Of a DNA stretch of 64,000 bases, positions 48,457-57,322 are shown one piece after another. A program made the position numbers and the translations under genes. The notes below the pieces were generated by a model that saw nothing but the letters and a program-made list of their open reading frames with translations, did not search any database and had not been told where the DNA came from. The stretch is taken from the NCBI GenBank assembly GCA_964561085.1, contig CAZLNP010000003.1:7351-71350 (forward strand), given 5' to 3'. This stretch comes from an uncultured Candidatus Saccharibacteria bacterium (GTDB lineage: Bacteria; Patescibacteriota; Doudnabacteria; UBA920). How positions within the stretch are numbered: position 1 is the first letter of the stretch; every line of letters begins with the position of its first letter.

Positions 48457-49134
48457 CTATTTCTTTTTCTTACCGTTATCTGGAGCAACCTTTACTAAAG
48501 GTTTTGTAACGCCAGTAGAAGTAATTCGGATCATTCCGCCAGTTGCACCAGGGATAGCGCCAGAAACCATCATCAAACCTTTTTCTAGATCAACATCTAC
48601 TACTTGTAGGTTTTTGACAGTTACGTGCTGAGTTCCCATGTGTCCAGCCATTCGACGGCCTTTGTTAACGTGTTGTGGATAACGAGAACCGATGGAACCA
48701 ACGGAACGGGGTTTATCGTGACCATGAGATGCCGGGAAACCTTTGAAACCATGGCGCTTCATAGCACCAGCGAATCCACGACCCTTCATTACACCGATAA
48801 CATCTACCAATTCACCAATTTCGAAAGCGCTTGCATCAAACTTTGCACCAGCTTCGAAAGTAGAAATTTCTTCAGGAGTCATGCGTTTTTCAACGAATTT
48901 ACCGAAGTGTCCTAAATCTTTGCTGTGGCCTGTTTTTGGCTTATTTGTACGCTTAGATCCAGCAATAGCTTGATCAATGCCGAATTGTACAGCGTTATAC
49001 TTATCTTTGCTTGCTTCAGTTTTTACTTGAGTAACAGTCATCGGCAAAACGGATACTACAGTAACCGGAATGCTTTCGCCTGATTCAGCAAAATACTGAG
49101 TCATGTTAAGTTTTTTTCCAACGATGAAGTTCAT
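48457..49134 (-). CDS. rplC: Ribosomal protein L3
   Basis: 225 aa. GVMKGRGFAGAMKRHGFKG. Confidence 0.9.
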   Translation of the reverse strand: MNFIVGKKLNMTQYFAESGESIPVTVVSVLPMTVTQVKTEASKDKYNAVQFGIDQAIAGSKRTNKPKTGHSKDLGHFGKFVEKRMTPEEISTFEAGAKFDASAFEIGELVDVIGVMKGRGFAGAMKRHGFKGFPASHGHDKPRSVGSIGSRYPQHVNKGRRMAGHMGTQHVTVKNLQVVDVDLEKGLMMVSGAIPGATGGMIRITSTGVTKPLVKVAPDNGKKKK

Positions 49135-49359
49135 GTCGTTCTTTTTCTGAAACTGAGTGGTCCGAACTTATAACGGACATCAGTCATCTGGTTAATAAAT
49201 ATAGGCTATAAAAAACAAAAAATGCTGAGCCTATTTGCCCAGCACACAAAAATACTTCTAAATCTAATAAAAGATAGAGGTTTCGTATGTTTGGCAAATA
49301 GTATTTTGATTGGAGCAGCTTTCTGGGCTGCGACCCTCAAAACTTATCTACACGATTGT

Positions 49360-49683
49360 TTAGCTCATTTTGATCTCAACATCAACTCCAGCAGGGAGAT
49401 TAAGGTTGGTCAAGGAATCAATAGTCTTAGCAGTTGGTTCAAGAATGTCGATCATTCTCTTGTGAACGCGCATTTCGAATTGTTCACGGCTATCTTTGTG
49501 TACGAAAGTTGAGCGAAGTACTGTGTACTTCTTCTTCTCCGTAGGTAAAGGAATTGGGCCAGAAATTGAGGCTCCAGTTCGCTTAGCTGTGTCCACGATC
49601 TGCTTCGAGCTTTGATCGATCAATTTATGATCGTAAGCACGAATCTTGATGCGGATTTTCGGTTTGTTAACTGCCTTGTCCAT
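49360..49683 (-). CDS. rpsJ: Ribosomal protein S10
   Basis: 107 aa. [15 protein letters not shown]... Confidence 0.9.
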
Positions 49684-49860
49684 TTAGTCAATGAGCTTGT
49701 TAAGGATTGCTAAAATGTGCTTGTTTATGAGCTATTTTTAGCGTTTAAAAGAAAGCTAAAACGTTGCTTAGCTATTCTTGAGTATTTTAAACGGTTTTTA
49801 CATTAATGTCAAGTTTTTCTGAAGGAAAAGTGAGGATTTTCTTAAAATACTTTGCGAGAT

Positions 49861-49890
49861 TGACAAAACTACTATAAAATAGTATAGTGC
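49861..49890 (+). promoter_or_regulatory. Sigma70-like promoter (TTGACA-17-TATAGT)
   Basis: ttgacaaaactactataaaatagtatagt, upstream of the ORF at 49960, which has RBS GGAGGAG. Confidence 0.45.
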
Positions 49891-49959
49891 AAGGTCTTGA
49901 GCGCCAGTATTAGCTTGAGAATATAGACAGAATTTAGTATTTTTCCGGAGGAGTTATTA

Positions 49960-50517
49960 ATGCAGAAATTAACTATTATAGGCCTGGGTAAGGATGCCCC
50001 GGTCTTTCTAAATGGGTTATTCGTCGTAAACAACGAACGGCTCATCGCTGAAATAAATAGTGTGGAAATGAAAGCGTATTACTGCGATCTTTCTACACTT
50101 GCAGCTCAAGGAGTAACTGACTGTGATCAGTTCGCCTTTGGTTTGATGGAAGAAGTCACAGCGCGAGTTATTCTCTACTCAAGAGTTTTGAATGACTGCA
50201 AATTTGATACGGAGAATGATAGTTTCGGCCATCCAATAGCCGTTAGCTCCGACCGAATTTTGCAAGATGTTGCATTTACACTTGAAGGTCGCCAAACTTA
50301 CATTGAAGGTGCAATTGGTATCAACAAATTACCCATCACGCTCTTCTCGGAGAGTCGTTTTACAGCCGGTAAGTCGCATTCAGAAATACTGATGATGACA
50401 CTGAGACGACTTTTCGAATATGGATTACTGGCGAAATACAACGACAGTATGGTGTTCGGACCAACAAGGAAGTTAATTCACGGCTTAGCGAAAGCGGCAC
50501 GATCCAATCAGTCTTAG
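49960..50517 (+). CDS. Hypothetical protein inserted between rpsJ and tuf on the opposite strand
   Basis: 185 aa. Strong RBS, own promoter, and a hairpin plus T-run terminator at ~50535-50560. Confidence 0.45.
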   Translation: MQKLTIIGLGKDAPVFLNGLFVVNNERLIAEINSVEMKAYYCDLSTLAAQGVTDCDQFAFGLMEEVTARVILYSRVLNDCKFDTENDSFGHPIAVSSDRILQDVAFTLEGRQTYIEGAIGINKLPITLFSESRFTAGKSHSEILMMTLRRLFEYGLLAKYNDSMVFGPTRKLIHGLAKAARSNQS

Positions 50518-50736
50518 TTCAAAAAACTTCTAGAACTACGGTATGCTAGTCAGAAATGGCTAGCTTTTTTATTAACTGAAATTAAAAAACTCCCCTACTT
50601 TCGTAGAGGAGTTTTTTATATAAAAGTAAATTGTTTGGCTGAAATATTATTTATTGAGGAGGCAGTAACGCTAAGCGCAGCTGCGAAGCAGCGTGAGCGC
50701 TGCCTCCGTATAAATAATTTTAAGTCTAAATCAATC

Positions 50737-51924
50737 TTACTTCATAATCTTAACTACAACACCAGCACCAACGGTACGGCCACCTTCGCGAATAGCGAAT
50801 TTGCCTTTTTCTTCTAGAGCTACTGGAGTGATCAATTTAACATTGATGTTTACAGTATCACCAGGCATAACCATTTCTTGACCTTCTGGCAAAATAACTT
50901 CACCAGTCACGTCAGTAGTACGGATGTAGAATTGAGGCTTGTAACCCTTGAAGAAAGGAGTGTGACGTCCACCTTCTTCTTTGTTCAAGATGTATACTTC
51001 AGCTTCAAATTCAGTGTGAGGAGTAATAGAACCGGTCTTAGCCAAAACTTGGCCACGTTCTACTTCTTCCTTCTTTACACCACGAAGCAATAGACCAGCG
51101 TTGTCTCCAGCCATACCCTTGTCTAGTTGCTTGTTGAACATTTCAACACCAGTAACAACTGTCTTAGATGTAGGGCGGATACCAACGATTTCAACTTCTT
51201 CGTTGATGTTGATAACACCACGTTCGATACGACCAGTAACCACAGTACCACGACCTTCAATAGTGAAGATGTCTTCGATTGGCATTAGGAAAGGTTGGTC
51301 AGTAGCGCGTTCTGGATCTGGGATGAAAGAATCCAAAGCTTCTACAAGCTTAGTGATAGATGGTTCACCCATATCAGATGTATCACCTTCAAGAGCTTTC
51401 AAAGCAGAACCACGGATGATTGGAGTATCTTTTCCAGGGAATTCGTACTTTGTTAGAAGATCGCGGATTTCTTCTTCAACAAGGTCTAGAAGTTCAGCGT
51501 CTTGAACCATATCACATTTGTTCATGTAAACAACGATGTGAGGTACACCTACTTGGCGAGCCAAAAGGATGTGTTCACGAGTTTGAGGCATTGGACCATC
51601 AGTAGCAGAAACTACTAGGATAGCGCCATCCATCTGAGCTGCACCAGTAATCATGTTCTTGATGTAGTCAGCGTGACCTGGACAGTCTACGTGAGCGTAG
51701 TGACGCTTTTCAGACTCGTATTCTGCGTGAGAAGTGTTGATGGTAATACCACGAGCACGTTCTTCAGGCGCATTGTCGATGCTAGCATAGTCCTTAGCTT
51801 TCGCGTTTCCGGACTTAGCTAACACAGTTGTGATAGCCGCAGTTAAAGTTGTCTTACCATGGTCTACGTGACCAATAGTACCAACGTTAACGTGGGTTTT
51901 CGAACGATCAAATTGCTCTGCCAT
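50737..51924 (-). CDS. tuf: Elongation factor Tu
   Basis: ORF 50737..51990. The true start is probably M23 ([27 protein letters not shown]). Confidence 0.95.
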
Positions 51925-52004
51925 TTGATACCTTTCGTTGAATATATAGTAAACGGGATGCCCCGAGATACCCTCGCTCTTTCCTCGCAATGATGCGGGG
52001 GAAA

Positions 52005-52025
52005 AGAGAGGGTCTCTCTTTTTTT
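52005..52025 (+). terminator. Short hairpin plus T-run (terminator-like)
   Basis: agagag-ggt-ctctct followed by T6-7. Confidence 0.45.
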
Positions 52026-52095
52026 CGCTAGGAATCCAGGAACATCAGGACTGTTTTCTACTTATTCAAATTTAATTATTGTACAAATAAAATCA

Positions 52096-52113
52096 GCGGC
52101 CGCAAGGCGCGCC
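52096..52113. other. Adjacent NotI (GCGGCCGC) and AscI (GGCGCGCC) sites separated by AA
   Basis: Two 8-bp G+C-only palindromes within 18 bp in AT-rich intergenic DNA: gcggccgcaaggcgcgcc. Confidence 0.9.
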
Positions 52114-52224
52114 AATCACTATGTATTCTAAGGAGTTTTGGAGGTGGTGTCAAGTTGGAATCGCTTTTGCTATTTACTAAAAAAGGTAGTATAACTAAAG
52201 TATTCATACAACGGAGGTGATGTC

Positions 52225-52551
52225 ATGATTCATCATATATACCGTCAGGAATGGCAGAGACTTGTGAACAACCGACTCAAGAGAGCTGGTTATTCATTCC
52301 ATCATTCACCGGAAGCAGCGGAGCTGTATATTAAACAGTTAGCCGATACAGAGGCGAAAAAATCGCCGATAGATCGACTATATGTTAAAGGTGTTCCTAC
52401 TAAAAGGGAAACGACTGAGCAATTCTTTAACGAAGTTAAAGGAAAAGCAGAACGAGCCTTGCAGTATGGGGAATTCCGAACTACAGATCCGACAACTCCG
52501 ATGGTAGATAAATCAGCCATTATCACTTTGGCAACCCTGTTTGCCAAATAG
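52225..52551 (+). CDS. Hypothetical small protein (108 aa)
   Basis: Strong Firmicutes-style RBS GGAGGTG, 6 nt before ATG. Upstream promoter-like TTGCTA-17-TATAAC. Hairpin plus T-run terminator at ~52560-52600. Confidence 0.45.
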   Translation: MIHHIYRQEWQRLVNNRLKRAGYSFHHSPEAAELYIKQLADTEAKKSPIDRLYVKGVPTKRETTEQFFNEVKGKAERALQYGEFRTTDPTTPMVDKSAIITLATLFAK

Positions 52552-52589
52552 AAAAAAGAGCAACTACTTAATTGTAGTTGCCTTTTAAT

Positions 52590-53027
52590 TTATATATCGT
52601 CAAAGTTTGTACTGATTTCTTCATCGACAGATGTTTCCGGAATATCAACTTTTACTTCTGGAGTGCCAGTGTAATTGTATGGCATCGATTTGAAAAGATT
52701 TTGAGCCCGCTTATTAATTAGCGAGTCGATTCGCTCTGCATTACTGGAATAGACCTGAGGCTCTTGTAAATCTGGATTAGGTAGCACGGCTTCTGGCAAA
52801 GCGGCATCAGCTACTGAAATAACTTCTTCCAATTGTGCCTGCAGAATTTCTCGGTTTACTTTCTCTGCGATGTCTTCCGCACTTAATTTGGTTTCTTGAG
52901 GTGCATTACCAGCAATCTTTTTATATTCATCATAAGGAAGGAGTACGCCCTGAACTTTGCCATCATCACTGACAATTACCACTTTCCCCTGCTCCCCAGC
53001 CAAATTTAAGTAATCTTTTATGTTCAT
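52590..53027 (-). CDS. Phd/YefM-like antitoxin-domain protein with acidic C-terminal extension
   Basis: 145 aa. N-terminal GKVVIVSDDGKVQGVLLPYDEYKKI matches the Phd/YefM pattern. No same-strand toxin partner. Confidence 0.35.
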   Translation of the reverse strand: MNIKDYLNLAGEQGKVVIVSDDGKVQGVLLPYDEYKKIAGNAPQETKLSAEDIAEKVNREILQAQLEEVISVADAALPEAVLPNPDLQEPQVYSSNAERIDSLINKRAQNLFKSMPYNYTGTPEVKVDIPETSVDEEISTNFDDI

Positions 53028-53189
53028 ATCTACATGGTAGTCTGAAGTAATAAACTTGGCAAATTTTGATTTAAGTACTAGACTTATGTTGATCTCCTCT
53101 CGAGGTCAATAATTCAAAACAAACCTATTTTAGTGGAATAGAATCAAGGGGGGCTACACTCTATGAAAACTTTATAGTGCGGTTTTACC

Positions 53190-53285
53190 GCATTCCAGAC
53201 TTTTTGGGGACTCAGTTAAATACGACTGGGTCCCGCTTTTTTTATTTAAAAGACCGCTCTGATAGAGCGGTCTTTATCATTTCTA
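53190..53285. terminator. Cluster of bidirectional terminator hairpins between fusA and the insert
   Basis: gggactcag...ctgggtccc followed by GCT7. agaccgctc-tgat-gagcggtct with T-runs readable on both strands. Confidence 0.55.
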
Positions 53286-53300
53286 TATATAAGCTTGAGG

Positions 53301-55436
53301 TTACTGTCCTTTACGAACGTTCATACCAGCACGAGCTTCGATGATTCCAGCAGCAACATTTTTAGGAACTTCAGCATAGTGATCGAATTCCATGATAGAT
53401 GATGCTTGTCCTTGAGTCATGCTACGAAGTTGTGTTGCGTAACCAAACATTTCAGCAAGCGGTACGTGAGCAGTGATGATCTTACGGTTTGTAATATCTT
53501 CCATGTCTTGTACTTTTGCACGCTTAGAGTTTAAGTCACCAATTACATCACCCATGTTAACTTCAGGTGTTGTAACTACAACTTTCATAACTGGTTCTAG
53601 AAGGACAGGATCGCCTTTGCGAACAGCTTCTTGCAAAGCTTTAGATGCAGCAATTTTGAAAGCCATTTCAGAAGAGTCAACTTCGTGATAGCTACCATCA
53701 TAAACAGTAGCTTTGAAGTCTACCAATGGGTATCCAGCGATAACACCATTTGCAGCAGATTCTTGGATACCTTTATCAATTGGCTTGATGTATTCTTTTG
53801 GAATTACACCACCAACGATTGCATCAACGAATTCGTATCCTTTACCAGCTTCCAAAGGTTCAACACGAAGGTAAACGTGACCGTATTGTCCACGACCACC
53901 AGATTGGCGGATGAACTTGTGTTCTGCTTCGGCCATCTTCTTAAAGCTTTCTTTGTAAGCAACTTGAGGCTTACCAACGTTAGCTTCAACTTTAAATTCG
54001 CGCTTCATACGATCTACAAGAATTTCAAGGTGAAGTTCACCCATACCAGCAATAATGGTTTCTTGAGTTTCAGTGTCAGAGCTAACTTTGAATGTCGGAT
54101 CTTCTTCAGCAAGTTTTTGCATCGCAATACCCATTTTTTCTTGGTCAGCTTTTGTCTTTGGCTCAATCGCCATAGAGATAACTGGTTCAGCGAACTTGAT
54201 CTTTTCAAGTTCGATTGGAGATGTTTCTGCACAAAGTGTATCTGCAGTGATAGTGTCTTTTGGACCTACCAACGCACAAATGTCACCAGCGAAAACTTCT
54301 TTAACTTCATCGCGTTGGTCAGCACGCATACGTACGATACGACCAACACGTTCTTTGTTTCCTGAACGAGCGTTCAAAACGTAAGAGCCAGCAGTCAAAG
54401 TTCCAGAGTAAACACGGAAGAAAGCAAGACGACCTACGAATGGGTCAGTTGCAATTTTGAAAGCAAGCGCTGTGAATGGTTCTGCGTCAGATGGGTTACG
54501 AACGAGCTCTTCACCAGTCTTTGGGTTTGTACCCTTAACAGGTTCTTTATCCACTGGAGATGGTAAGAAGTTTGCAACTGCATCAAGCAATGTACGAACG
54601 ATGATACCACGGCCATCACCACCAAATACTGGATAGAATTCACCAGAACGAGTTGCTTTACGGATAGCCATAAGCAATTCATCTTCTGTAAGAGCTTCAC
54701 CGCCCAAATATTTTTCCATCAATTCGTCGTCGAACTCAACAACTTTTTCAATTAATTCATGACGGTACTTTTCAGCCTTTTCTAACATGTCTGCAGGAAC
54801 TTCACCAATAGTGAATTCTTTGTCTGTGTAATCTTTGTATGTGTAAGACTTCATTCCGATAAGATCTACAACACCAATAATGTCTTTTTCAAAACCGATT
54901 GGAAGTTGTACTGGGAATGCATTCTTTGTTAAACGAGTGTGAATAGATTCCAAAGACTTGTAGAAGTCGCCACCAGTTTGGTTAATCTTGTTGATGAAAC
55001 ATGCGCGAGGTACACCATACTTGTCGGCTTGGCGCCATACTGTTTCGGATTGAGGTTCTACACCCATCTTACCGTCGAATACGGTAATGGCACCATCAAG
55101 CACACGCAAAGAACGTTCAACTTCTACTGTGAAGTCTACGTGTCCTGGTGTGTCGATAATGTTGATTTTGTATTGATCAACGCTGTCGCCTTCATGGGCC
55201 ATCTTGATGTACTGGGGTTTCCAGTAACAAGTAACAGCAGCAGACGTGATAGTAATACCACGTTCACGTTCTTGTTCCATCCAGTCGGTAACAGTTTCAC
55301 CTTCGTGTACTGCACCAATGGTGTGGATCATACCGGTGTTATACAAAATACCTTCGGTAGTTGTAGTTTTGCCGGCATCGATGTGAGCGATAATCCCGAT
55401 GTTTCGGGTCGCTTCAATTGGATATTCTCTTGGCAT
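53301..55436 (-). CDS. fusA: Elongation factor G
   Basis: 711 aa. [17 protein letters not shown]. Confidence 0.95.
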
Positions 55437-55459
55437 AATTTATTAAATCTTTATTTCTA

Positions 55460-55963
55460 TTATTTACGCTTGTTTCCAAAACGTGCGAAGTGAGCGAAAG
55501 CTTTGTTAGCTTCAGCCATACGGTGAGTGTCATCACGCTTCTTAACAGCAGCACCAATTTTGTTGAAAGCATCAACAATTTCGTAAGCTAGCTTTTCGCG
55601 CATTGGAGCACCTTTACGAGCGCGGGCAGCATTAATCATCCATTTCATTCCAAGTGCTGTGCGGCGAGGTTCTTGTACTTCCATTGGAACTTGATAGTTA
55701 GATCCACCGATACGGCGACCTTTAATTTCCATCAATGGAGCGATATTTTTTAAAGCGATGTCGAAGATCTGACGGCTGTCAGAAACATCTTGGTCTTTCA
55801 TTTTTTCACCAACAATGTCCAATGCATCATAGAAAATCTTCTGTGATACGGTTTTCTTACCGCGTTCCATTAGGTAGTTAATGAACTTACCGTATTTAAC
55901 GCTAGAAAACTTTGGATCTGGGGCTGGCAAATGTTTTTCGAAACTTCTTGCTCTACGTGGCAT
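55460..55963 (-). CDS. rpsG: Ribosomal protein S7
   Basis: 167 aa. MPRRARSFEKHLPAPDPK... Confidence 0.9.
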   Translation of the reverse strand: MPRRARSFEKHLPAPDPKFSSVKYGKFINYLMERGKKTVSQKIFYDALDIVGEKMKDQDVSDSRQIFDIALKNIAPLMEIKGRRIGGSNYQVPMEVQEPRRTALGMKWMINAARARKGAPMREKLAYEIVDAFNKIGAAVKKRDDTHRMAEANKAFAHFARFGNKRK

Positions 55964-55984
55964 ATATTTAAAGTCTTTCTAGGG

Positions 55985-56407
55985 TTACGCTGCGCTTGGG
56001 CGCTTTGTTCCATATTTACTGCGAGAGCGTTTACGACCGTCAACGCCTAATGTGTCCAACTTACCACGAACGATGTGGTAACGAACACCCGGAAGATCTT
56101 TTACACGACCGCCGCGAATCATTACTACACTGTGTTCCTGCAAGTTGTGACCAACACCTGGGATGTAAGCAAGAACTTCCATCTGGTTAGTCAATTTAAT
56201 CTTAGCTACTTTTCGAAGCGCAGAGTTCGGCTTCTTTGGAGTAGTTGTGTATACCTTTAGACAAACACCGCGCATGAATGGAGATCCAGTCGGCATGGTG
56301 ATTACCTTATTCTTTAGCAAGTTCACACGACGTTGTAACGCCGGAGATTTGCTTTTGGCTTTCAAAGGCTTTCGACCTTTACGAACCAATTGGTTAATAG
56401 TTGGCAT
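55985..56407 (-). CDS. rpsL: Ribosomal protein S12
   Basis: 140 aa. [13 protein letters not shown]...[11 protein letters not shown]. Confidence 0.9.
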
Positions 56408-56502
56408 CTTTCGATGTACCTTTCTTATTTGGGTGACACTCGCCTCTTCGCTTGTCTCTATGACAAACTTAGAAACGTCCCTTTAATAAATAATTTCCAC
56501 AT

Positions 56503-56522
56503 AAAAAACTGACCAGAGTCAG
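56503..56522 (-). terminator. Intrinsic terminator or attenuator in the rpsL upstream region (minus strand)
   Basis: On the minus strand: ctgac-tctg-gtcag followed by T6. Confidence 0.45.
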
Positions 56523-56767
56523 CTCTCGTGGTTTCGTGATTTGGTACTGCGACGAAGCCTATGCCGCTGACGCCAATTAAGGCGATCTTCCCAAATATAC
56601 GAACAATGTGTCGGTAATTCCTTTGCCAATTAAGGCACTGATGGGGCTTCAATGAATTGTATGTGGATTATAGCTAAACTGCTGGTTTTGGTCAAGTTGA
56701 CAAAATACTAATAATATCCCACAATCTGATTAGTTCACGTTAGTTCAATAAGAAATAGGGGGAAATC

Positions 56768-57322
56768 ATGACTGTTCCAAATTCAAATACCAAACCTAAT
56801 CTCACAAAAGAGAAGTTTTTTTATGTTTTAGGTGAAGAAGTTAGTCGTCTGGTTGGAGGACGCTACTATCCATTTGGAGTTGAAAGCTTGCCAAGCTTGC
56901 GTATATATCAAAAAGAGAATGGCACTACTACCATCATAGGGCCTTATGGGGAAGTAAATATGAGGAAAGACGACACCTTAAGAATGGACCTAGAAGGTAA
57001 CTTGCGTTTTCTAAAGGGTCCATCGCGCATGGATAATCCTTTCCAAAAGGTTATGGTAAGATCTCGTCTGAAACCTGACTTACTCAAACTCTCTAATAAG
57101 GAAGAAGAGGACACACCTGTTGAAATTCACTACCCTTTTATGGCGGTCATTTTTAGTTCCAACGGAAAAGAAAGAAAGATATTTCCTGAAGGGAACCACA
57201 TTTCATACCGCATAAGCTCAAGTTGGGAAGTCGTAATGACGTATGACTCCAGAACAGAATCCGTTTGCGATATAATTGTTCGCTCTCACGCGAAATCAGA
57301 GGCTGCTGACATCCTCTTATGA
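56768..57322 (+). CDS. Hypothetical protein, paralog A (shares RKDD...LKGPS region with the next gene)
   Basis: 184 aa. RBS AGGGGGAAA. Terminator at 57485-57516. Confidence 0.45.
   Translation: MTVPNSNTKPNLTKEKFFYVLGEEVSRLVGGRYYPFGVESLPSLRIYQKENGTTTIIGPYGEVNMRKDDTLRMDLEGNLRFLKGPSRMDNPFQKVMVRSRLKPDLLKLSNKEEEDTPVEIHYPFMAVIFSSNGKERKIFPEGNHISYRISSSWEVVMTYDSRTESVCDIIVRSHAKSEAADILL

Follow-up and report, generated by a model that had tools for sequence, protein, structure and literature searches.

A NotI-AscI site pair between fusA and tuf of an uncultured Saccharibacteria bacterium is probably natural and lies in a predicted hairpin of the tuf leader

We analyzed the region between fusA and tuf in a 64-kb stretch of DNA (the window; contig CAZLNP010000003.1) from an uncultured Candidatus Saccharibacteria bacterium. 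The list of open reading frames (ORFs) places rpsL (56407-55985), rpsG (55963-55460), fusA (53301-55436; elongation factor EF-G, 711 aa, identified from its translation) and tuf (50737-51924; elongation factor EF-Tu, 395 aa) of the str operon on the minus strand. fusA and tuf form the upstream and downstream edges of the spacer, and after tuf come ORF185, on the plus strand, and rpsJ. Pfam EF-G domains are annotated on the fusA homologues of two related loci (L008 and L012), and the EF-Tu proteins of relatives are 90-99.7% identical to that of the window. From the translation, we set the tuf start at the ATG at 51924, which has a Shine-Dalgarno sequence, GAAAGG, at 51931-51936; a start at TTG 51990, from the automatic ORF call, was rejected as an artefact. 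The spacer measures 1376 nt (51925-53300), in agreement with the approximately 1.38 kb given in a preliminary description of this DNA. It contains a conserved lineage-specific gene on the operon strand (ORF145, 145 aa, 52590-53027) and a member of a fast-evolving small-protein family on the opposite strand (ORF108, 108 aa, 52225-52551). The order would be fusA with its own terminator, then ORF145, then a terminator shared with the convergent ORF108, which in turn is divergent from tuf; transcription of tuf would be driven by a separate, strong promoter of the sigma-70 type, followed by a 5' leader of approximately 190 nt that is conserved and structured. Our main conclusion, to which we give a probability of roughly 85%, is that this DNA is a natural part of the chromosome of an uncultured member of Candidatus Saccharibacteria (Patescibacteria), with the fusA-tuf architecture that is normal for this clade.

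The preliminary description had drawn attention to an 18-mer that consists of a NotI site, AA and an AscI site. This sequence (GCGGCCGCAAGGCGCGCC) is present at 52096-52113 as a single copy in the 64 kb, and it holds the only NotI and the only AscI site of the window. There were no occurrences of it in 100 shuffles of the window, with up to three mismatches permitted. If nucleotides are treated as independent and identically distributed, the expectation is 8.9e-8 copies per window, and the earlier estimate of about 1e-7 was thus accurate. This is the wrong null model, because all-G/C 8-mers are far likelier within a G+C-rich stem than under independence, and the 18-mer sits in a selected, G+C-rich RNA stem.

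We found the exact 18-mer and the insert around it in six independent assemblies (Logan SRR12762285 and ERR14149686; ENA ERZ2272274, ERZ2270693 and ERZ2271133; NCBI GCA_013558295.1). These are short contigs from unrelated assemblies, located by exact-sequence look-up of the products of both ORFs. The look-up also returned ENA ERZ2271563 and ERZ2271246, and each returned contig that spans the site carries the identical 18-mer. Elsewhere, the six assemblies are 94-100% identical to the window, with substitutions flanking the 18-mer. For example, locus L003 is 96.3% identical (29 mismatches, many of them within tuf), and L008 and L009 are 94-97% identical; in L006, at 98.3% identity, the substitutions cluster right beside the 18-mer. 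Because the same insert and 18-mer occur in independent assemblies with diverged flanks, the DNA is of natural origin, and the engineered or vector-derived cassette suggested in the preliminary description is refuted. Its fallback, a natural segment with a coincidental site pair, was correct as far as it reaches. Among the checks it proposed, the comparison of fusA-tuf spacers in relatives recovered the same insert, 18-mer included, and the protein-database search of the two ORFs gave 64 homologues of ORF145 and three close matches to ORF108. There was no blastn match of 51925-53300 to 72,556 plasmids or 50,697 phage records, and neither ORF matched a marker family in profile searches. The G+C content is flat across the segment and codon usage is native.

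To place the 18-mer, we aligned approximately 20 related tuf upstream regions, combining the contexts of ORF145 homologues with 16 loci from metagenome-assembled genomes (MAGs). All 16 contig matches in the genome search were to Saccharibacteria or Patescibacteria MAGs. In the window, a promoter scan found TTGACA-17 nt-TAGAAT (52125-52153, minus strand), with 11 of 12 positions matching consensus. In 19 of the 20 upstream regions there is TTGAC-N17/18-TAnAAT, then 7 nt, then an invariant GATTGG, and in 19 of the 20 a hairpin begins 8 nt after the conserved -10 box; the 5' end of the mRNA is predicted. The tuf promoter of another Saccharibacterium serves as a strong promoter in genetic work (PMC10633639).

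The hairpin in the window, which we call P1, is GAUUGGCGCGCC-UUGC-GGCCGCUGAUU (52091-52117, minus strand; 11 bp with one bulge, by RNAfold). The AscI site (52106-52113) is its 5' arm, and the NotI site (52096-52103) comprises the last two loop bases and the 3' arm. Read on the tuf strand, the 18-mer is GGCGCGCC-UU-GCGGCCGC. It is the G+C-rich arms of P1 and no linker, and the hairpin starts at the predicted first transcribed base, G52117. There are conserved U's directly after the stem. By RNAfold, P1 of the window has an energy of -12.9 kcal/mol when read as tuf-sense RNA, compared to -9.7 kcal/mol for the antisense, and a hairpin beginning at the G of GATTGG is present in all loci, with energies from -8.9 to -15.3 kcal/mol.

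The sequence of the apex differs among relatives (GGCGCGCAUUCGUGCUGCC in L017, GGCAAACAAUCUUUGCC in L015 and GGUGGAAGAAUUUUCACC in L030). In L017, which is 89% identical, the hairpin is kept and both the NotI and the AscI site are missing. Since apical sequences differ among relatives, the site pair is an accident of the all-G/C stem of one sublineage. The base of the hairpin pairs throughout: across 17 aligned leaders, the basal 8 bp give 136 cells, and all 136 hold a pair. G·U accounts for 32 of these cells, and 2 of the pairs show compensatory change. No change is seen in the left arm, and the right arm (CCAATT, CCGATT, CTGATT, CCAGTT or CCGGTT) changes solely between A and G or between C and U, with G·U pairing retained. 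Because G·U changes would be mismatches in duplex DNA, this pattern argues that P1 is selected as RNA on the tuf strand. We infer that P1 would act as tuf-sense RNA rather than as a DNA palindrome or an element of the plus strand.

RNAalifold on the same 17 leaders gives, in addition to P1, a core (51957-52046, minus strand) with two further elements, P2 and P3; pairs were counted on the same alignment. In P2, GAUGUUCC (52039-52046) pairs with GGGGCAUC (51957-51964). Inside P2 are an unpaired, invariant CUGGAUUCCU (52030-52039), a run of A's (52018-52026) and the long hairpin P3 (51965-52018). A standard pair is formed in 93.5% of cells, compared to 40-59% when the partners are slid. There were 11 pairs with compensatory change, and the covariation score was reached by none of 500 shuffles; the covariation is of the RNA type. 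The stem sequence of P3 is nearly invariant across deep divergence, and two loci (L024 and L027) have large insertions exactly at the P3 apex with the stem preserved. Read in the tuf sense, the leaders contain 93 G·U pairs, compared to 19 in the antisense, and the sense strand folds approximately 2-3.5 kcal/mol better on average. The minimum free energy of the whole leader is -62.8 kcal/mol (z = -4.1). The leader occurs once in the window and is always directly upstream of tuf in relatives, so that the core combines covarying structure with a fixed position upstream of a gene, as cis-regulatory leaders do. A cmscan search of 49000-57000 against Rfam (E ≤ 5) gave chance matches only, the best for the leader having E = 0.76. 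When metagenomes were scanned with the leader core AGMGAGGGTATCTCGG, 4 of 120 rows among the matches listed were real tuf leaders, and the others were chance 16-mers.

These results bear on the claim that the segment is foreign to the str operon, which is wrong for most of it. The supposed linker and the hairpin followed by seven T's both belong to the tuf 5' leader. The latter is present as described (51965-52018, plus strand, and seven T's); it is P3 of the tuf leader. Homologues of ORF145 are at the same site in every relative examined, and the ORF108 family is found in about two thirds; the 273 nt between fusA and ORF145 are the one part that is specific to the strain.

We also observed that the purine run AAAAGAGAG (52018-52026, minus strand), which lies 5' of P3, is complementary to CUCUCUUUU (51998-52011) in the 5' arm of P3. 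The two could form a weak, short-loop hairpin that competes with P3; by eye, the complementarity has one mismatch in most relatives.

How such a leader might work can be proposed from its layout. tuf transcription would start at about G52117, making P1 a 5'-terminal stem-loop that would shield the abundant tuf mRNA from decay that depends on the 5' end. Stem-loops at the 5' terminus are known to stabilize mRNA, for example the hairpin in the 5' untranslated region (UTR) of Escherichia coli ompA and the leaders of Bacillus subtilis aprE and ermC. By analogy with these, P1 is most plausibly mRNA-stabilizing, and conservation of structure over sequence, as expected of a stabilizer, is what P1 displays (complete basal pairing, wobble pairs and a variable apex). 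The P2/P3 core, with its invariant blocks, would bind a partner or fold so as to tune translation or stability of tuf. Because terminators do not conserve the sequence of their stems, a regulatory role, through binding of a ligand or a protein, appears more likely for the core than simple termination.

Several observations weigh against this interpretation of the leader. The left arm of P1 never varies, which a purely structural element would not need. Hairpins at the 5' end are not general at the predicted promoters of the window: the mean minimum free energy was -5.1 kcal/mol for 22 promoters and -3.9 for random positions, so we rejected the idea of a general promoter design, and only tuf and one other of the 22 reach -9 or below. 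Structure prediction and pair counting used one set of 17 related sequences, which inflates both the pairing figures and the difference between sense and antisense. In the window, P3 is slightly more stable on the plus strand (-37.9 kcal/mol, z = -4.1) than on the minus strand (-33.9 kcal/mol), and the conserved run of A's makes P3 a textbook plus-strand terminator in every relative.

These two properties of P3 lead to the strongest alternative, that the hairpins are mainly terminators. P1 and its U-tract would then attenuate tuf close to its promoter, and P3 with the run of A's, read on the plus strand, would keep antisense transcription out of the tuf and ORF108 promoters. This is compatible with a leader, and blocking of antisense transcription may be a second role of P3; as the main role of the hairpins, we regard termination as rather unlikely. 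In its favor are the canonical form of P3 followed by U5-7 on the plus strand, the run of A's in 17 of 17 leaders, the invariant U's after P1, and the convergent genes downstream of tuf in several loci, such as ORF185 in the window. However, structure alone would suffice for a terminator, yet the P3 stem is nearly invariant in sequence. The wobble pairs favor the tuf sense by 93 to 19, and the pairing of P2 around P3 covaries, which a terminator does not need. P3 has no plus-strand gene upstream and is embedded in the tuf-sense leader structure. As to P1, its tail has 2-5 U's in the 8 nt after the stem, the terminator scan made no call there, and a gene as highly expressed as tuf would be crippled by efficient termination at +30.

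ORF145, the conserved gene of the segment, has homologues down to 33% identity among its database matches. Wherever the flanking sequence of a locus reaches far enough, the gene is on the operon strand, with fusA on one side and tuf on the other. It is under strong purifying selection, with a ratio of nonsynonymous to synonymous substitution rates (dN/dS) of 0.047 compared to the orthologue in L008, similar to that of tuf. The protein has a Phd/YefM-like N-terminal beta-hairpin and helix (in the family alignment, MNLKDFLQLAGQQGKVVV.GEDG.VKGVFLP.DEYQKL). Two further helices are conserved, and the acidic C-terminus, DEEI..NFDDI, is invariant. The preliminary description had called it Phd/YefM-like. 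The ORF is there, and the resemblance falls below the cut-offs: the match to Pfam Phd/YefM (PF02604) has E = 4e-4 and 20.5 bits, under the cut-off of 29.8, and the match to TIGR01552 scores 16.7 against a cut-off of 20.8. Among 38 family members, 8 match Phd/YefM, all under the cut-off, and an hhalign comparison with approximate sequences of YefM and Phd gave E of about 0.07. The similarity appears real yet sub-threshold. An AlphaFold2 model (predicted local distance difference test score 62; predicted template modeling score 0.19) was too poor for a fold search. ORF145 would probably be a small protein that dimerizes and serves as a regulator or adaptor, binding a partner through its conserved C-terminal helices and acidic tail, and the constant linkage to fusA and tuf hints at a possible role related to translation.

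Upstream of ORF145, a scan predicted a promoter, TTGCCA-17 nt-TACCAT (53034-53062, minus strand), the -10 box of which stops 6 nt short of the ATG. A TAnnnT hexamer is similarly placed in 19 of 20 loci, its end 5-8 nt (mostly 6) from the ATG, compared to 3.6% of random positions, and there is usually TTGCCA or TTGACA 17 nt further up, or an extended TGn. A motif like a Shine-Dalgarno sequence precedes ORF145 in one of 20 loci. Because the -10 box is so near the ATG and the Shine-Dalgarno motif is nearly absent, the ORF145 mRNA is probably leaderless, with its start at the A of the ATG.

With ORF145 always linked to tuf, P1 might instead be a DNA operator, in which the inverted repeat ATTGG...CCAAT just past the -10 box, at +1 to +27 of a strong promoter, would be bound by a repressor, ORF145 being the candidate. 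N-terminal domains of the Phd/YefM type bind palindromic operators. We consider this improbable: the half-sites are conserved unequally, the left arm being invariant and the right arm varying in ways that keep RNA G·U pairs and break DNA symmetry, the spacer between the arms differs in length and sequence, and the membership of ORF145 in Phd/YefM is not established.

Upstream of ORF108 there is a predicted plus-strand promoter (-35 TTGCTA, 52167-52172; -10 TATAAC, 52190-52195), which is back to back with the tuf promoter and whose -35 box reads TTGACA in relatives. The GGAGGTG ribosome-binding site (52213-52219) and the terminator hairpin after ORF108 (52559-52582) are present as the preliminary description had them. 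A scan of both strands found the terminator to be bidirectional and common to the convergent ORF145 and ORF108, and it is kept in independent assemblies. ORF108 looks like an orphan in a direct search, with its three close matches. An iterative hidden Markov model search over the fetched loci found 13 distinct and highly diverged variants; roughly two thirds of the loci carry one, which in each case is encoded opposite to the operon and lies between ORF145 and tuf. A profile search added six database members. The proteins of the family have 79-111 aa and share the motif M.Y..+..W...YS.H.S.E.A..FI. ORF108 is a real but fast-evolving gene under purifying selection, because its dN/dS in frame (0.44) is below the values in the other frames (1.5 and 0.83). 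Its AlphaFold2 model, of low to moderate confidence, folds as a small b-b-a-b-a-b sandwich, for which no structural neighbor proved informative. Searches of the ORFs with PDB profiles, PADLOC and PHROGs gave nothing credible, and a WGR-like identity considered for ORF108 was dropped, having no profile support.

Two small adjacent genes, one of them weakly similar to Phd/YefM, co-occur in about two thirds of loci with variable orphan ORFs around them, and this could indicate a mobile island of the toxin-antitoxin or addiction type, made up of ORF145 and ORF108 and inserted in the str operon. We think that there is little chance of this. The genes are convergent and not co-transcribed, so that ORF145 is without the co-transcribed toxin (of the Doc, YoeB, ParE or RelE type) expected beside a Phd/YefM antitoxin, and searches for toxin, PADLOC, Pfam and PDB families gave no match for ORF108. 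About one third of loci have ORF145 but lack ORF108, and the fixed chromosomal position of ORF145 over 33-98% identity, with the low dN/dS, points to vertical inheritance. Repeats, an integrase, and plasmid or phage matches are all absent.

The weakest reading, an engineered cassette, vector remnant or assembly contamination in which the NotI-AscI pair is a synthetic linker beside an insulator terminator and an expression unit, could appeal to the very low expectation of the 18-mer under independence and to the modular-looking order of hairpin with T7, rare cutters, promoter, ribosome-binding site, ORF and terminator, but it has next to no probability given the identical 18-mer in six environmental assemblies with diverged flanks, the conservation of both alleged parts across species as tuf-leader elements with covarying hairpin arms, the lack of matches in the plasmid and phage collections, the native codon and G+C usage, and the fact that published Saccharibacteria cassettes, in which tuf and rpsJ promoters drive hph or reporter genes at neutral sites, are unrelated to ORF145 and ORF108 (PMC10633639).

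The preferred reading, natural DNA with the normal architecture of the clade, can be carried one step further. Tentatively, and with the odds against the whole combination, the leader could be a new, Saccharibacteria-specific cis-regulatory RNA, comprising P1, the invariant CUGGAUUCCU, the run of A's and P2/P3, that senses a signal related to translation (EF-Tu, a ribosomal protein or a nucleotide) and sets the synthesis of EF-Tu accordingly, with ORF145 a new translation-associated factor of these epibionts with reduced genomes and ORF108 its fast-evolving partner.

The remainder of the segment, between ORF145 and fusA, is more variable. The intrinsic terminator of fusA found by the scan, AAAGACCGCUC-UAUCA-GAGCGGUCUUU followed by UUAAAUAAAAAAA (53249-53275, minus strand), also scores on the plus strand, and the position of its hairpin is common to L008; the remaining spacer is not homologous. 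A non-coding part (53063-53248) is strain-specific, being present in the window and SRR12762285 only. It contains a plus-strand terminator-like hairpin followed by T7 (53207-53234) and a small hairpin (53178-53192). The terminator-like hairpins that the preliminary description had placed near fusA are those at 53207-53234 and 53249-53275. We found no protein or DNA similarity between the fusA-ORF145 spacer (273 nt) and the other loci; relatives have unrelated ORFs of 68-218 aa here, encoded on the opposite strand. A plus-strand promoter-like sequence, TTGGCA-17-TAGACT (53056-53084), faces the terminator at 53207-53234, and a transcript of approximately 150 nt (53091-53241, plus strand), divergent from ORF145, is possible. 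Its coding content would be limited to a 4-codon mini-ORF after a AAGGGGGG motif, and is found in the window and SRR12762285 only. A second small family (69-73 aa, MS...YFVCA...) is present on the opposite strand in the fusA-ORF145 slot of several relatives (4518-4739 in L016 and L030, 4698-4919 in L017 and 4665-4874 in L027), and is missing from the window.

Similar variability extends to other slots. Relatives have unrelated, mostly opposite-strand orphan ORFs between rpsG and fusA, fusA and ORF145, ORF145 and tuf, and tuf and rpsJ. In the window, ORF185 (49960-50517, plus strand) lies between tuf and rpsJ, convergent with tuf, and has no Pfam, NCBIfam, PADLOC or PHROGs match. Its terminator (50545-50564) faces that of tuf (50618-50583), and the same ORF is present in L008. 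Since relatives hold other orphan ORFs in the ORF185 slot, variable small genes on the opposite strand are interspersed through the str/S10 region of this clade.

Four further observations concern the str region and its relatives. Upstream of rpsL (56408-56695, minus strand), a promoter, TTGACC-17-TATAAT, is followed by a leader of approximately 250 nt in which CCUUAAUUGGC occurs twice and a hairpin, GCUGACUCUGGUCAGUUUUUU, resembles a terminator; this leader had no Rfam match in the scan of 49000-57000, and may be a structured str-operon leader or attenuator. Upstream of rpsJ (49684-49812, minus strand), there is a near-consensus promoter, TTGACA-17-TAAAAT (49812-49784), with a promoter-proximal hairpin, AGCUAA-GCAACG-UUUAGCU, and then a U-rich tract; the layout is like that of tuf P1, with a weaker hairpin (-5.2 kcal/mol). 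At 50585-50742 (minus strand), over the 3' end of tuf and its terminator, there is a sub-threshold Rfam match to BTnc231, a Bacteroides small RNA (32.8 bits, with a gathering threshold of 80.4; E = 9e-4), which is probably terminator-driven noise. Finally, two loci labelled Candidatus Doudnabacteria (L029, DAOLDG010000009.1, and L030, JBBSJS010000013.1) have a fusA-ORF145-tuf arrangement of the Saccharibacteria type, with EF-Tu 90-96% identical to that of the window. Their taxonomic labels are probably wrong, or the contigs mis-binned.

What is new here is modest: a structured tuf leader that had not been described before, and a conserved gene, probably leaderless, that often has a fast-evolving partner. 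The candidate leader RNA, which is outside Rfam, and ORF145 are small, testable starting points for work on how translation is controlled in a phylum whose genomes are minimal. The first Saccharibacteria genetic systems use the tuf upstream region as a strong promoter (PMC10633639); if this region does carry a structured leader, with a 5' hairpin and a conserved core, the design of such cassettes would be affected. In addition, pairs of rare-cutter sites can arise in natural G+C-rich RNA stems, and a low probability under independence of nucleotides is not evidence of engineering.

The segment can be compared with five known systems. Like the NotI/AscI polylinkers of cloning vectors, it has two 8-base rare-cutter sites 2 nt apart; unlike them, its 18-mer occurs in wild metagenomes, within a covarying hairpin and with no vector sequence around it. 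ORF145 shares with Phd/YefM type II antitoxins (PF02604, TIGR01552) the motif ..VVI....G...GVLL...EY..L and a long, partly disordered C-terminal region. It differs in that the domain's first strand and helix are missing, as is a co-transcribed toxin, and in having a fixed, housekeeping location, two extra conserved helices and the invariant acidic tail DEEI..NFDDI. The hairpins at 52559-52582 and 53249-53275, and P3 with its seven U's on the plus strand, fit the consensus of intrinsic terminators. P3 is unlike these in lying inside a larger covarying structure, at a fixed distance from the tuf start, with its sequence conserved. The stabilizers of ompA, aprE and ermC resemble P1 in having a stable hairpin no more than a base or two from the 5' end, which in the window is predicted, of an mRNA with high expression, and the P1 apex is conserved as structure rather than sequence. 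In contrast, P1 has the invariant GAUUGG left arm and conserved U's, which the classical stabilizers do not need. Compared to the leaders of ribosomal protein operons (L10_leader, L20_leader and those of the S10 type), the tuf leader has no Rfam match and no recognized rRNA or tRNA mimicry. It is like them in being a structured, conserved 5' UTR before a translation gene in the str/S10 region, and its covarying helices and invariant unpaired blocks are suggestive of a protein ligand.

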